DNA from: a plasmid
Reading direction: 5' to 3' (one strand)
Length of the DNA stretch: 45,197 bases
Sequence record: NZ_CP022471.1
The translations under genes were made by a program, and so were the position numbers. This document shows, in pieces, positions 16,404 through 27,545 of this stretch. Position 1 is the first letter of the stretch. The number at the start of each line of letters is the position of its first letter. The notes under the pieces were generated by a model. That model searched no databases and was not told the origin of the DNA. It saw only the letters and a list, made by a program, of their open reading frames with translations.

Positions 16404-16667
16404 ATGAAAAATACAATCAAACTAGCTTTATTAGGTGCAGTTATTACTGGTGTTTTTTCTGCTTGCTCTTCAGAGCCAAAAACAGTGCAATATTACGAAG
16501 ATCCAAAAAATGCTACAGAATTAGAAGCTAAAATCAAAGAATGTGATAAAAATGCTAATTCTGCGAAAACTGACACAGAATGTGCAAATGCTTATAAGGC
16601 AAACTATTCTAAGTCATTTCAAAAGCCACGAGAAAGTGCTATGGAATTTTTTAAGAACAACAAATGA
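16404..16667 (+). CDS. Lipoprotein with the lipobox FSAC. Its last ~20 aa and its stop are duplicated from the 3' end of the virB5-like gene, so the gene is chimeric.
   Basis: ATG at 16404 with an AAGGA RBS. From 16606 the DNA is about 99% identical to 27392..27545. Confidence 0.5.
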   Translation: MKNTIKLALLGAVITGVFSACSSEPKTVQYYEDPKNATELEAKIKECDKNANSAKTDTECANAYKANYSKSFQKPRESAMEFFKNNK

Positions 16668-16759
16668 ATTTAGATCTTTTTCAAACTCTAGGTAAAAGCA
16701 TACAACAAATTGTTGATGCTATAAGACAAGTAGGCACAAATGATAAGGTTGCAGAACTT
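16606..16759 (+). repeat. 154-bp direct repeat, copy A. It duplicates the virB5 3' end and the virB6 5' end. Copy B is at 27392..27545.
   Basis: Direct sequence comparison shows 2 mismatches near the 5' end and identity elsewhere. Confidence 0.9.
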
Positions 16760-16762
16760 TAA
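16664..16762 (+). pseudogene. Truncated virB6 5' fragment (32 codons, MNLDLFQTLGKSIQQIVDAIRQVGTNDKVAEL) created by the duplication.
   Basis: Identical to the first 32 codons of the virB6 gene at 27450. It is followed by a stop and unrelated AT-rich DNA. Confidence 0.6.
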
Positions 16763-16888
16763 AAGTAAATAACTATTATATATTAAAAATTACTGATATA
16801 TAATAGTTATTTTTAGTAATTAATGTTATATGTTAAAGTGTAATACAAAAAGATTATATTACACAAATCTTGATAAAAGTTTTTATCA

Positions 16889-17146
16889 TTAAACCTTTTT
16901 TAAAATCTCTTTGTATTTTCTTAAACCTTTACAAGTATGAAATAAACCTGTGATTCCAATAATAAAAATCACAGACATTAAAAAACAATCTTGAAAGAAA
17001 ACAGCAATATTTTCATAAATGAAAAATTCAAAAACAAGAAATAAAAAACTTAAAAAAGTTACAATTAACATAATTGTTAAATCAAAATACAGCTTCTCTA
17101 AAGTGTTAAGTTTAGTATAATCTAAATATTTAATAATTTTACACAT
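16889..17146 (-). CDS. Small membrane protein with 2 transmembrane helices.
   Basis: On the minus strand, GAGGTAAAAGAATG gives a good RBS. The protein is hydrophobic. Confidence 0.35.
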   Translation of the reverse strand: MCKIIKYLDYTKLNTLEKLYFDLTIMLIVTFLSFLFLVFEFFIYENIAVFFQDCFLMSVIFIIGITGLFHTCKGLRKYKEILKKV

Positions 17147-17322
17147 TCTTTTACCTCTGCTTCTTATGCTTATTTTCTATTAAAACATTATATCATAATT
17201 TCTATTTCTATTAGCAACACTTTCTGTTTGGAGTTTTTTAAAATAAAAGTTCAAAAATTTTAATTTTTGATTTACCTTATTTAATATTATAGAATTTAAT
17301 GAATTTAAGAATTTAGGAATTA

Positions 17323-17609
17323 TTACATTTAAGTCAATTGTTTTTTTAAAGTTCTTATTTTCCATATATTCTTTTCGTAAAAATGTCAAAAATTATTACA
17401 TTTAAGTCAAAAATTATTACATTTAAGTCAATTTTATTTGAAAATAAGAGGAGTATTTAATAATTTTTGTTGACTTTAATGTAAGTGTATATTACATTTA
17501 AGTCAATTTTATTTGAAAAAATTCTAAAATTGCTACCTATTGACATAGATGTGATACTTTGGTATAATTTATTTCGAAGATTAAAATATTTGGTTACATT
17601 TAAGTCAAT
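17323..17609 (+). repeat. oriV-like iteron array. Five direct copies of TTACATTTAAGTCAA(T) start at 17323, 17396, 17417, 17492 and 17594. A degenerate inverted copy lies at 17470..17485.
   Basis: Exact 15-16-mers. Copies 3 and 4 share an extended 29-nt match ATTACATTTAAGTCAATTTTATTTGAAAA. The array sits immediately upstream of the rep operon. Confidence 0.65.
17540..17568 (+). promoter_or_regulatory. Consensus sigma70-type promoter TTGACA-N17-TATAAT inside the iteron array, oriented toward hicB-hicA-rep.
   Basis: TTGACA at 17540..17545, a 17-nt spacer and TATAAT at 17563..17568. The hicB ATG is 70 nt downstream. Confidence 0.5.
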
Positions 17610-17637
17610 CTTATCATTTTTTAATACAAGGAATTAG

Positions 17638-25066: not shown

Positions 25067-25728
25067 GTGATAAAGAATTACAAAAAGAAATATTAGCTTT
25101 AGAAAACGATGTTAAGCAACTAGAAGCAACTATTGATGTAATTAAACAAAGAATCACTCATCTTAAAGATATTGCTTGGGATAGACAAAGTAAAAAAGAA
25201 AGTTCTCAAATGTATAAAGTGTTAAAAGAAGATAAAACACATACAAGGGTTAAAAGTAATGTAGGAGATATTAAAGTAGATAAAGACTTTATGGATAAAG
25301 AAATTAAAAAACATTTAGATAATCCAAATTTAAGAGGAATGGTTACTACACAAGAGATGTTATCTTTTCCTAAGGTGGCTAAAGGTGTGGAAGCTAACAA
25401 CGAAGCAAGAGGCTATACTTGGCAAGTAAAAGCAAACGATGGAAATACTTTAGTTTATGGAAGTAGAAAATATGAAACCAATAACGAAAAAATTCATAGG
25501 TTAGCGACAAGCCATAGTAAAACAGAGAAGAATGAAAGACAAGCGGAAGTGGGTGGGCGTAGTCATCCCCACCATCCCATATTTAATGACTTCAATTTTC
25601 GCAAATCCGCTGAAAATATTATATCACAACAAAACAAATCCACAAATGATTTTAAAGCAAAATTAGAAGAATTTAGCACCAAAAAAACAAATGCAATTGA
25701 ATCTATAAATAAGGAGTTTAAAAGATGA
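25063..25728 (+). CDS. Hypothetical coiled-coil protein. It contains an internal GC-rich hairpin (25552..25573).
   Basis: Overlaps the Rha gene stop by 4 nt. N-terminal coiled coil. Confidence 0.35.
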   Translation: MSDKELQKEILALENDVKQLEATIDVIKQRITHLKDIAWDRQSKKESSQMYKVLKEDKTHTRVKSNVGDIKVDKDFMDKEIKKHLDNPNLRGMVTTQEMLSFPKVAKGVEANNEARGYTWQVKANDGNTLVYGSRKYETNNEKIHRLATSHSKTEKNERQAEVGGRSHPHHPIFNDFNFRKSAENIISQQNKSTNDFKAKLEEFSTKKTNAIESINKEFKR

Positions 25729-25761
25729 AAAAATATTACACCAACAAAAAGGAGTTAAACA

Positions 25762-26187
25762 ATGAATAATGTAAATCTAATCGGATACTTAGGAAAAGAT
25801 TTTGAAGTAGGCACTACAAATAGCGGAAGAGTTTATGCAAAAAATTCTCTTGCAATTACAAAGCGATGGAAAAATGAAAGAGGCAATGAAGAAAGTAGCA
25901 CGACTTGGATACCTATTGTTTTATTTGGCAAAAGTGCAGAAAGTGCATCAACACACATTAAAAAAGGTTCTCAGTTTGCGTGTAGTGGAGAATTATCATC
26001 CAATCAATATCAAGATGAAGATGGAAATACTAGAACAATGCTAACCGTGATTGTATCTAAATTTTATTGGCTTGGCAAAAAAGATAAAGATGACAATGGA
26101 ACACAAAATCCACAAGTCCCACCAAAAGAGCCAAATATTGATTATGAAAACACAAATATAGAATCTGAAGAAACACAAGTATTTTAA
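25762..26187 (+). CDS. ssb: Single-stranded DNA-binding protein.
   Basis: OB-fold N-terminus MNNVNLIGYLGKDFEV...TWIPIVLFGK and an acidic C-terminal tail. Confidence 0.75.
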   Translation: MNNVNLIGYLGKDFEVGTTNSGRVYAKNSLAITKRWKNERGNEESSTTWIPIVLFGKSAESASTHIKKGSQFACSGELSSNQYQDEDGNTRTMLTVIVSKFYWLGKKDKDDNGTQNPQVPPKEPNIDYENTNIESEETQVF

Positions 26188-26202
26188 GATTTAAGGATAA
26201 AA

Positions 26203-26478
26203 ATGTCTATAAAAAATTTAAGTGTAGAAGAATTAGCGCAAGAATTAGAAACTTCAAATCATGAAAAGCTGATTAAAGCTTTGTTTTTATTTGAAAAAAA
26301 TTCTTCAATGGAAGATCTTAATTCAGATCAAATAGAAATAATTTTAGATGAAGTATATGAATTTTATATCAATCATAAATCTATATCTTCTTTTTTACAA
26401 GAAGATATAAACCAAGCATTAGATAAAGCTATTGATAAAGAGCTTTGCAAAAAACAAGAAAAATCATTTGAAAGGTAA
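26203..26478 (+). CDS. Hypothetical small acidic protein.
   Basis: 91-aa ORF with an RBS-like AAGGATAAAAATG. Confidence 0.35.
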   Translation: MSIKNLSVEELAQELETSNHEKLIKALFLFEKNSSMEDLNSDQIEIILDEVYEFYINHKSISSFLQEDINQALDKAIDKELCKKQEKSFER

Positions 26479-26481
26479 AAA

Positions 26482-27453
26482 ATGAAAAAAAATATCTTTG
26501 GTGTTAATAAAGCCATAGGGAAATCTCATCCCCATGAAAATGGGGCAAGACTAATAAGCCTTGACTATAATTATACAAAGGAGTATAATTATAACTATGA
26601 GATTTGTGTAACTCAATTTAACCACCTCTTTTCTGAGGTTAAATTTAGCCACAGGGTTGCAGCCCTATGGCTAACCCCACAAAATTATATCCAAAAATTT
26701 AAAAAATCTATTCTTATTCTTACTTCCTTATTAGTTTTGCCTAACTTAGCATTTAGTGCTGGTATTCCTGTAGTTGATGTAACAGCAAATCAGCAAATGG
26801 CTACACAAAACGCTAAACAAGTGGCAGAATGGGCTAAAGATGCTTCAAGATGGACTGAAACAGTAGCACACTATCAAAAACAAATTCAAGCTTACAAAGA
26901 TGAACTTTTATCAAAAACAGGCATTAGAGATTCAGTAACTTTTCTAAAAGATATTAAACAAATATATTCAGATTTTGCTGAAGTTGGGCAAAATATTCAA
27001 TCATTTTACAATGATGTATTAAGAGATCCACAAAAATTTTTAAGTGATAAAGGTAATGAAATTTTTGGAAAATATACGAGCTTTGATCGATGTAATTTTG
27101 ATTTTTTAAGTCAATCAGAAAAAAACATTTGCAAAATGAATTTAATCACTTATGCTGCTCAAGTAGAAACCTATAATCAAGCTTCAAAACAAATGGATAC
27201 GATTAGTCAAACACTCCAAAAATTGCAAGATAAATTAGTAAATTCCAAAGATATTAAAGAAAGCACAGATGTTGGCAATGCTATTCAGTTGGAAGTGGCA
27301 AAAATTCAAATGGTTAAAAATCAAGTTGATTTAGCCAATGCAAGTTATGAAAACCAAAGAAAAATTAAAGAAGATATGGCTATGCAAGAATATTCTAAGT
27401 CGTTACAAAAGCCACGAGAAAGTGCTATGGAATTTTTTAAGAACAACAAATGA
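26482..27453 (+). CDS. virB5: VirB5-like secreted T4SS minor pilus protein. The true start is uncertain, because the first ~70 codons of the ORF hold promoter-like and hairpin elements and the signal peptide begins near codon 74.
   Basis: The signal-peptide-like KKSILILTSLLVLPNLAFSAG is followed by an alpha-helical body. The stop overlaps the virB6 start. Confidence 0.45.
   Translation: MKKNIFGVNKAIGKSHPHENGARLISLDYNYTKEYNYNYEICVTQFNHLFSEVKFSHRVAALWLTPQNYIQKFKKSILILTSLLVLPNLAFSAGIPVVDVTANQQMATQNAKQVAEWAKDASRWTETVAHYQKQIQAYKDELLSKTGIRDSVTFLKDIKQIYSDFAEVGQNIQSFYNDVLRDPQKFLSDKGNEIFGKYTSFDRCNFDFLSQSEKNICKMNLITYAAQVETYNQASKQMDTISQTLQKLQDKLVNSKDIKESTDVGNAIQLEVAKIQMVKNQVDLANASYENQRKIKEDMAMQEYSKSLQKPRESAMEFFKNNK
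26561..26589 (+). promoter_or_regulatory. Near-consensus sigma70 promoter TTGACT-N17-TATAAT inside the annotated 5' end of the virB5 ORF. It is flanked by the hairpin CCCCATgaaaATGGGG (26530..26545) and the 22-bp dyad CCACAGGGTTGCAGCCCTATGG (26649..26670).
   Basis: Visible directly. These GC-rich structured elements sit in an otherwise AT-rich context. Confidence 0.35.
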
Positions 27454-27545
27454 ATTTAGATCTTTTTCAAACTCTAGGTAAAAGCATACAACAAATTGTT
27501 GATGCTATAAGACAAGTAGGCACAAATGATAAGGTTGCAGAACTT
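27392..27545 (+). repeat. 154-bp direct repeat, copy B, at the native virB5/virB6 junction.
   Basis: Matches 16606..16759. Confidence 0.9.

Follow-up and report, generated by a model that had tools for sequence, protein, structure and literature searches.

Apparent concerted evolution of the EexN and VirB5 C-termini in pTet-family plasmids of Campylobacter, and its possible bearing on entry exclusion

Why should a conjugative plasmid carry the junction between two of its type IV secretion system (T4SS) genes twice? The question is raised by a 45,197-nucleotide (nt) stretch of the plasmid sequence record NZ_CP022471.1 (hereafter the window, by which the whole of this stretch is meant). Here the end of virB5 and the beginning of virB6 occur a second time, about 10.8 kb upstream, as the end of a small lipoprotein gene, eexN, and a fragment of virB6 behind it. 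The window is that of a Campylobacter conjugative plasmid of the pTet family: a 14-kb part matches NZ_CP071461 (pTet), AP025964 and NZ_ON007234 with 100% identity, and the region 15000-29000 is covered to at least 80% in 154 records of the plasmid database PLSDB. Sequence comparisons make it, in our judgement, rather probable that the pair is conserved by gene conversion across pTet-like plasmids and that the tail common to the two proteins is an exclusion-specificity element.

The direct repeat, which an earlier note on this DNA had put at 154 bp, extends over 155 nt (16605-16759 and 27391-27545, both on the plus strand) of which 153 are identical, with a start-to-start spacing of 10,786. The only mismatches are 16616 A/G and 16619 T/A, and an exact run of 140 nt comprises 16620-16759 and 27406-27545. 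As that note had claimed, and as the coordinates of the open reading frames (ORFs) confirm, the downstream copy lies across the virB5/virB6 junction, with 20 codons from the end of virB5 and 32 from the start of virB6. The upstream copy consists of the last 20 codons of the lipoprotein gene (to 16667) and a 32-codon ORF at 16664-16762. Since this is the sole long near-exact repeat in a window of 29% G+C, a chance origin is excluded.

The lipoprotein gene (16404..16667, plus strand, 87 amino acids) had been described as unrelated. It is, however, eexN, a gene which canonically lies between virB5 and virB6. Its product matches the entry-exclusion family NF033894 (NCBIfam Eex_IncN) with 55.5 bits against a cut-off of 33, residues 6-69 corresponding to profile positions 5-64 of 65, and RefSeq labels the product of 16404-16667 an EexN family lipoprotein. 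The signal peptide carries a lipobox (MKNTIKLALLGAVITGVFSAC followed by SSEP), the residues F18, S19, A20 and C21 of which are invariant in 27 homologues. EexN is thus a lipoprotein of this entry-exclusion family, and exclusion by the pTet protein is a prediction from its sequence; no published exclusion test of pTet EexN was found in the literature searched. In the window the gene stands downstream of a DUF5710/Toprim primase gene and 10.8 kb upstream of the virB5/virB6 junction. It thus does not occupy the place between virB5 and virB6, and the virB6 fragment behind eexN is the sole trace there of the virB5-eexN-virB6 neighbourhood.

That the lipoprotein ends in the C-terminus of VirB5 is correct (tail YSKSFQKPRESAMEFFKNNK). 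The further idea, that an unrelated gene had gained a foreign C-terminus by accident, does not survive, the identity of the eexN and virB5 tails recurring with several alleles. The NF033894 profile stops at EexN residue 69, leaving the shared tail outside. In the AlphaFold model a helical hairpin forms the core (residues 34-72, model confidence score pLDDT about 90) from which a linker (73-78) leads to a short helix (79-86, pLDDT about 63).

The virB5 gene (26482..27453, plus strand) specifies the pilus-tip or minor pilin protein, with 83.3 bits to PF07996 (gathering score 24.7) over residues 94-299. Because this match stops at residue 299, the shared tail (VirB5 residues 304-323, YSKSLQKPRESAMEFFKNNK) is again outside the family core. 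The VirB5 model has its last long helix running to YSKSLQ, then KPRES as a linker and, as a short helix, AMEFFKNN (pLDDT about 60); with modest confidence, therefore, the two models contain the same flexible peptide of a linker plus a short helix. In the annotated VirB5 about 75 residues (window 26482-26706) precede an apparent signal peptide (KKSILILTSLLVLPNLAFSA followed by GIP), and since many database homologues are 75-90 residues shorter the true start may be further downstream.

Full-length virB6 (27450..28448, plus strand; TrbL/VirB6 family, annotated type IV secretion system protein) has 119.6 bits to PF04610 over residues 40-252. The upstream stub, virB6' (16664..16762, plus strand), encodes the first 32 codons of the gene (MNLDLFQTLGKSIQQIVDAIRQVGTNDKVAEL) and ends with TAA exactly at the repeat boundary; its start overlaps the eexN stop in the sequence ATGA. 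As the stub ends at residue 32 and the TrbL/VirB6 membrane domain begins at residue 40 of the complete protein, the stub lacks that domain: it is a fragment of VirB6, not a VirB6. The presence of such a fragment after the lipoprotein gene, also pointed out previously, is not new, a published gene table listing a "truncated VirB6, 32 aa" after cpp23/EexN (PMC9032879). The sharing of the tail, on the other hand, we found undescribed in the literature searched. A virB6 5' fragment directly 3' of eexN with an overlapping ATGA looks like a relic of the canonical eexN-virB6 adjacency. In one database homologue of EexN (P0079) the start of a tail of the B type described below reads into virB6-stub sequence (...YKPQIIDSIRQVDTSDKVV), which gives a natural EexN::VirB6' fusion.

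How general is the sharing? In five pTet plasmids the EexN core (residues 1-71) is invariant except for three substitutions, and after the motif YSKS come discrete alleles which also end the VirB5 proteins, following an EYSKS of their own. These include tail A, (L/F)QKPRESAMEFFKNNK; tail B, FDYKPQVSTKELMQKAREQNK...; and tail C, LQNFHNEAISDEEA.K..KKK. Matched tails in EexN and VirB5 comprise at least six alleles (A, A-upsaliensis, B, C, C2 and D) in pTet-like plasmids of C. jejuni, C. coli and C. upsaliensis and in one metagenome contig. The same repertoire of tails is seen in EexN and VirB5 homologues from C. jejuni, C. coli, C. upsaliensis, C. helveticus, C. felis, C. lari, C. estrildidarum and Helicobacter. 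Pairs of database homologues are on average 0.90 identical in the EexN core and 0.44 in the EexN tail; the corresponding VirB5 values are 0.84 and 0.30. When mature VirB5 was aligned from 12 pTet-like loci the last 20 or so columns were the most variable (0.30, against 0.83-0.98 in the core). Both proteins, then, possess discrete variable segments that co-occur, as in allele-specific exclusion pairs.

Tail-specific DNA was compared with PLSDB by BLAST, giving record counts that are inflated by clonal relatedness: 82 records and 149 places for tail A, 70 records and 128 places for tail C, and 103 records and 221 places (several per megaplasmid) for tail B. Typically one place falls under an "EexN family lipoprotein" and one under the virB5/virB6 genes. 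The proportion of places to records indicates that most records with tail A or tail C (about 80%) carry the allele twice. The weight of the argument rests on several different alleles each being matched, not on these counts.

Some loci depart from the simple pattern. In C. coli FBAW01000012 (L026, 80-363) eexN has tail B and is split by a frameshift, and the VirB5 tail differs (KKEPLDPSEFFKKK); here the mismatch coincides with a decaying exclusion gene. In NZ_AP028343.1, at about 34616-35032, the matches of tails B and C to an "EexN family lipoprotein" are some 300 nt from each other; this suggests that the plasmid has a tandem pair of eexN genes differing in their tails. Two homologues with the adjacent locus tags DTA48_07670 and DTA48_07665 (P0003 and P0014) suggest such a pair in another isolate. 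The non-mobilizable plasmid NZ_CP040614 (L008, 71.9 kb) has identical eexN genes at 15262-15525 and 21839-22102, each behind the same pair of small ORFs, and no annotated T4SS genes within the 40 kb examined; these may be orphan exclusion genes shielding the host from entry of pTet-type plasmids.

To what degree the two copies resemble each other was determined by aligning, within each plasmid, the 3' region of eexN with the virB5/virB6 junction. Identity is 98.1% over 161 nt in the window (tails A/A, to +92 nt past the stop), 99.4% over 177 nt in CP092036 (C2/C2, to +93), 98.8% over 169 nt in a C. upsaliensis locus (L025, A-upsaliensis in both, -76 to +92) and 97.9% over 140 nt, including about 51 nt of virB6, in a metagenome contig (L029, D/D). 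Two plasmids share the tail only, NC_022354 (B/B, 98.8% over 83 nt) and NC_017282 (C/C, 94.8% over 77 nt). CP017877 (A'/C) has an old, diverged stub with 84.7% identity over 131 columns and the same +92 boundary. While the copies are about 98-99% identical within each of the first four, the same segment is strongly diverged between these lineages. The C. upsaliensis repeat, for example, is visibly diverged from that of the window and its own two copies are nearly identical. The VirB5 of the metagenome contig is only 74% identical to that of the window, and on the contig both tails read ...FETSKNMRVTEEEKALFLRKSINE.

The right boundary at +92/+93 past the stop is common to four loci, namely the window, CP092036, CP017877 and the C. 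upsaliensis locus, and the stub ORF is intact in all of them. Plasmids of the B and C types have kept a remnant of about 25 nt of the virB6 5' end with the same right-hand junction, AAAAGTAAA, from which it follows that the stub is ancestral and was eroded later. In the metagenome contig (European Nucleotide Archive, ENA; 39.7 kb) eexN and the virB6 stub, at 702-989, are inverted relative to the T4SS genes. Since this inverted pair is nonetheless 97.9% matched, conversion or selection would act in either orientation.

Paralogues that stay identical while orthologues diverge, within conserved outer boundaries, argue for repeated gene conversion. The two copies are on these comparisons a concertedly evolving pair across pTet-like plasmids, with conversion as the mechanism that we infer. 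A look at the architecture of pTet relatives, which the earlier note had recommended, thus revealed a repeat relation that is family-wide and that, given the recurring alleles, the common boundary and the inverted copy, points to ongoing gene conversion and probably selection, not to a passive scar. The stub offers about 96 nt of homology on the 3' side, and the 5' side just the YSKS codons, TATTCTAAGTC; the stub is probably both an old relic and the 3' homology arm for conversion. The sole indirect hint of conversion tracts comes from the variable 5' ends of identity, SFQ versus SLQ, when the window is set against the locus L011 and CP028186.

The following course of events may be proposed. 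In the pTet lineage an old rearrangement would have moved eexN and the first 32 codons of virB6 to a site behind the primase gene, 10.8 kb upstream of virB5/virB6. Gene conversion would repeatedly copy one 3' end onto the other, the stub providing 3' homology and the shared YSKS codons the 5' edge, and the last 20-28 or so codons of eexN would in this manner stay identical to those of virB5. EexN in the envelope of the recipient would carry the same hypervariable C-terminal peptide as VirB5 at the pilus tip of the donor. This shared tail may be the specificity element of entry exclusion, the copy borne by EexN engaging, or competing for, the docking partner of the tail in the incoming T4SS. 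After a change of tail allele in virB5, conversion would re-template eexN, and the plasmid would keep excluding its own kind. A VirB6-like protein is the target of exclusion in ICEBs1. For the pTet tail VirB6 is the leading candidate partner, because VirB6-like proteins are exclusion targets in F-like and SXT systems and because VirB6 is where VirB5 docks in the stalk of R388 (PMC9259494); alternatively, the contact may be between VirB5 and VirB5.

If the tail has such a role, is a resemblance to be seen outside Campylobacter? Thirteen proteobacterial MPF_T systems (IncN, IncW-like, IncX4, IncP and Xanthomonadales), a small sample picked by hand from "spread" BLAST rows, were examined by comparing the last 22 residues of Eex/TrbK with the cognate VirB5/TrbJ. 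In 12 of the 13 the best 22-residue window of the cognate protein is its C-terminal one. The cognate pairs sum to 432, compared with 242 +/- 35 for permuted pairings. Of the permutations, a fraction of 5e-6 reaches the cognate sum, or 0.0018 when only the eight EexN-type systems are taken. The tails of VirB5 and Eex, in that order, are GADGEDLSMPNVTE and GKSDDGLSMPKVTP in pKSB1_9J.3, EQEAFIKQQKEAEPLTFD and KQALFIQSQKDAPVPTFD in IncX4, and ARRGHLDLKPLEFN and ARRGHLKLDAADLN in a Stenotrophomonas plasmid. In R46 the VirB5/TraC tail is FVFGTGGDVTASPSIN and the Eex tail FVLGKEDGEINSPKI; in R751 TrbJ ends in QLRQGSYRASPARTW and TrbK in CLRRGGDFKPSPKREW; and in pSE5381 the VirB5/TrbJ tail, ...SPRNWLELTR, stands beside ...PMNWLELADP... 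in Eex/TrbK. Across the 13 systems the evidence for tail-to-tail resemblance is strong, and that for co-variation of cognate tails moderate. Quite possibly, though we offer it only tentatively, the exclusion lipoprotein of VirB-type (MPF_T) systems at large (IncN, IncW, IncX4, IncP, Xanthomonadales and pTet) displays a mimic of the VirB5/TrbJ tail, which would define the exclusion group, and pTet adds to this a gene-conversion cassette of tail plus virB6 stub that re-matches eexN to virB5.

The gene order in these systems bears on how the pTet arrangement arose. R46 (IncN) has virB4, virB5, eexN and virB6 in succession, and virB5-eexN-virB6 also occurs in other IncN plasmids, an IncW-like plasmid, pXap41, a Pseudomonas plasmid and the Stenotrophomonas plasmid. 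The order trbJ-trbK-trbL is found in three of the five IncP plasmids examined, and a Methylophaga IncP plasmid has trbJ-trbK and then cysZ. Altogether one or the other order was seen in R46 and 11 further proteobacterial loci, and a common position of the eex/trbK gene in IncN and IncP has been published (PMC8923210). IncX4 is the exception among the proteobacterial systems examined that hold both virB5 and eexN. In pEC1258-mcr (L017, 2501-2716) the EexN-family gene is upstream of virB1 and shows one of the strongest matches to the VirB5 tail (z = 6.8); relocation of eex is consequently not unique to pTet.

Several observations weigh against the proposal. Matching of the tails is not obligatory, about 15-20% of records having mismatched ones. 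Of these CP017418 (EexN-B with VirB5-A) and CP007182 (EexN-C with VirB5-A) have just 20-29 nt common to the two loci, and are taken to be inter-lineage recombinants because their left-hand protein accessions are those of a B- or C-type backbone and their right-hand ones are A-type. The 5' homology of about 11-14 nt is short for RecA-dependent conversion, a mechanism which is deduced from its outcome only. Variation in VirB6 over the 12 pTet-like loci, found at residues 1-15, about 211-240 and the C-terminus, gave no signal separable from phylogeny and linkage. Taken by itself, the IncP group shows no significant cognate specificity, 22 of 120 permutations attaining the sum of the cognate pairs, and its signal is one of tail-to-tail similarity rather than co-variation; one of the 13 systems, pSTW0522-72-3, shows no tail similarity. 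Among the Campylobacterota no locus was found in which eexN has kept its place between virB5 and virB6, so that the relocation part rests on the stub and on proteobacterial gene order. Finally, conversion between the members of an old duplicate pair could bring about the matching of tails neutrally, as a by-product, a matter taken up below.

The history may have run in the opposite direction, although we consider this somewhat unlikely. The tail would then be native to EexN, and virB5 would have gained it when, after eexN and the start of virB6 had been copied upstream, eexN was lost from between virB5 and virB6 by recombination between similar tails. The canonical order, in which the eexN stop adjoins the virB6 start, favours such a course, as do the YSKS tails of EexN throughout the Campylobacter and Helicobacter clade and the fact that the Y and S of YSKS are inside the EexN family profile. 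Against it, distant VirB5 proteins (C. fetus and C. lari, 60-66% identity) keep the motif (Y/F)(S/A)(K/E)S plus a tail. In C. fetus, moreover, virB5 directly adjoins virB6 with no eexN on the contig examined, so that the tail looks native to VirB5 as well. Neither the C. fetus (L028) nor the C. insulaenigrae (L030) locus has EexN within the DNA examined, and a scan of contigs with the VirB5 alignment returned only three close relatives, which did not reveal the ancestral gene order. This alternative differs from our preferred explanation in history alone, and not in the present behaviour of the pair.

The main rival, which we hold to be unlikely, is neutral concerted evolution, in which a partial duplication left by the move of eexN is homogenised as homologous stretches in a small replicon are, the tail having no exclusion role. 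Mechanical conversion predicts that the virB6 stub, equivalent to non-coding DNA, should be homogenised along with the tail, which it is; mismatched plasmids exist and persist; and where the stub is eroded, as in NC_017282, the copies are less alike. NC_022354, however, has no stub, and its copies are nevertheless 98.8% identical over 83 nt. The tail is hypervariable in both proteins and comes as discrete alleles, like exclusion-specificity determinants, and exclusion by the related TrbK depends on its C-terminus. Furthermore, tails resemble one another at the protein level in IncN, IncW-like, IncX4, IncP and Xanthomonadales systems that have no stub, where they match in only 40-50% of residues, too little for recombination. 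Neutral conversion accounts for pTet, but not for mimicry in systems lacking a DNA repeat.

It is very improbable that the repeat is just the scar of one recent modular insertion or rearrangement in this plasmid lineage, by which a copied virB5 tail and virB6 start became joined to an unrelated lipoprotein gene. The sharp right boundary of the truncated virB6 copy and the coherent module of replication and front T4SS genes between the repeats could be read in this way. Yet the same boundary in C. upsaliensis and with other tail alleles, and the eroded remnants in B- and C-type plasmids, place the repeat-forming event before the diversification of the family; besides, the gene is the natural neighbour of virB5 and virB6, and several independent tail alleles are matched. 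Of the earlier view of a scar of modular insertion or rearrangement, an old rearrangement as the likely origin of the stub stands, and the one-off event does not, since the relation recurs with alleles A, A-upsaliensis, B, C, C2 and D. An assembly artefact, one copy being misassembled reads of the other, has only the near identity of the copies in its favour and is excluded, the repeat being genuine: the upstream junction (query 16350-16900) is covered to at least 80% in 51 independent PLSDB records, three complete plasmids are 100% identical across 14 kb including both copies, the copies differ at two positions and have unique flanks, and the virB6 fragment was reported independently (PMC9032879).

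Between the two copies lie hicBA, an AAA-ATPase rep gene, the recombinase and vapD genes, virB2, virB3/4, rha, ssb and virB5, just as had been listed. Contrary to what had been stated, the stub does not pass directly into iteron DNA: an ORF on the minus strand (16889-17146) intervenes, and the iterons begin only at 17323. The iteron cluster of the presumed replication origin, oriV (17323..17608), upstream of hicBA and the rep gene, consists of six copies of TTACATTTAAGTCAA, one of them inverted and with one mismatch, compared with 0.03 matches expected by chance. The AAA_25/DnaB-like ATPase, the presumed replication protein, is encoded at 18056..19849 on the plus strand. Recombination between the repeats would take this gene out of the backbone, yielding two circles, one of 34.4 kb that lacks oriV and rep and one of 10.8 kb that has both. 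The RecA-mediated deletion foreseen earlier is chemically possible, but its large product loses oriV and rep, and deletion derivatives, when looked for, were not seen: when both predicted chimeric junctions were used as queries against PLSDB (72,556 plasmids), 223 and 205 records respectively gave a match, and none of them attained 80% query coverage.

Other features of the window were noted in passing. A 31-nt inverted repeat, 81% complementary (19917-19947 and 21396-21426), flanks, as had been noted before, a minus-strand cassette of recombinase, vapD and hypothetical genes (19972-21274), near which relatives have as added cargo a TIR-domain gene, a kinase, or dcm together with a histidine kinase. 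The two ends of the window (19-66 and 45116-45163) have a 48-nt stretch in common, in direct orientation and 92% identical, which may represent a regulatory or oriT-like element present twice, or may mean that the window wraps around a circular record. Two adjacent internal duplications at 38962-39253, one of 67 nt (78%) and one of 65 nt (82%) with spacings of 162-168 nt, begin AATGTCCGCAATGCAATAAAGG and look like tandem CxxC zinc-ribbon modules in a coding region, probably that of the C-terminus of the topoisomerase.

The target of Eex/TrbK in P-type (VirB/Trb) systems has been an open question since the 1990s, and it has been written that "the eex mechanism remains unknown" (PMC9825185). A co-varying tail is a concrete and testable hypothesis, one that fits the need for the TrbK C-terminus, the help given to trbK by trbJ and the VirB5-binding protection factor of Xanthomonas. 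Were it true, the exclusion groups of pTet plasmids, the main carriers of tet(O), could be read from sequence alone, with a bearing on which resistance plasmids invade which Campylobacter strains, and plasmids would be making an unusual use of gene conversion to hold a self-recognition pair in register. In the full-text literature searched, outside which most subscription papers fall, so that an earlier mention is possible, there was no account of the shared tail, its alleles, their concerted evolution or the mimicry between Eex and VirB5 tails.

A close known counterpart is the Eex of IncN plasmids (pKM101, R46). Like pTet EexN it is a small lipoprotein of family NF033894 with a Cys-containing helical core, belongs to VirB-type (MPF_T) conjugation, and has a C-terminus resembling that of the cognate VirB5/TraC. 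The IncN gene, however, lies between virB5 and virB6 and its tail is similar at the protein level only, whereas pTet has eexN 10.8 kb away, a virB6 stub, a tail DNA-identical to that of virB5 and several matched alleles. TrbK of IncP plasmids (RP4, R751) is likewise a lipoprotein with a tail resembling that of TrbJ, and its gene is flanked by trbJ and trbL, whose products are homologues of VirB5 and VirB6; TrbK differs in its NCBI family name, in having neither DNA repeat nor stub, and in a cognate co-variation that is not significant in a small sample. The C-terminus of TrbK is essential for exclusion (PMC8923210), and exclusion by RP4 needs trbJ and trbK in the recipient, being 3.5-fold with trbK alone and about 10^4-fold with both (bioRxiv 10.64898/2026.09.24.754286).

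The killing T4SS of Xanthomonas (X-T4SS) is blocked by a periplasmic protection factor that binds VirB5 (bioRxiv 10.64898/2026.05.09.723464). This protein, Tpf (XAC2611), is comparable to EexN as we picture it in being a recipient-side envelope protein which blocks an incoming VirB-type T4SS and binds VirB5. It is, however, a cysteine-rich globular DUF4189 protein and not an EexN, no sharing of the VirB5 tail has been reported for it, and it guards against the delivery of toxins and not against the entry of DNA. In the TraS/TraG pairs of F-like plasmids and the Eex/TraG pairs of SXT/R391 and IncA/C elements a T4SS protein of the donor has a variable segment that is recognised by an exclusion protein of the recipient, and discrete alleles define the exclusion groups. 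There the exclusion protein and its target, the VirB6-like TraG, are unrelated in sequence, whereas that of pTet carries a copied segment of a T4SS protein, VirB5; we know of no gene-conversion device in the F or SXT systems. Paralogous segments are kept alike, or cassettes exchanged, by non-reciprocal recombination between conserved flanks in pilE/pilS of Neisseria and in duplicated tuf genes. The pTet pair differs from both in that it joins parts of two different genes and in that its apparent purpose is sameness rather than diversity.

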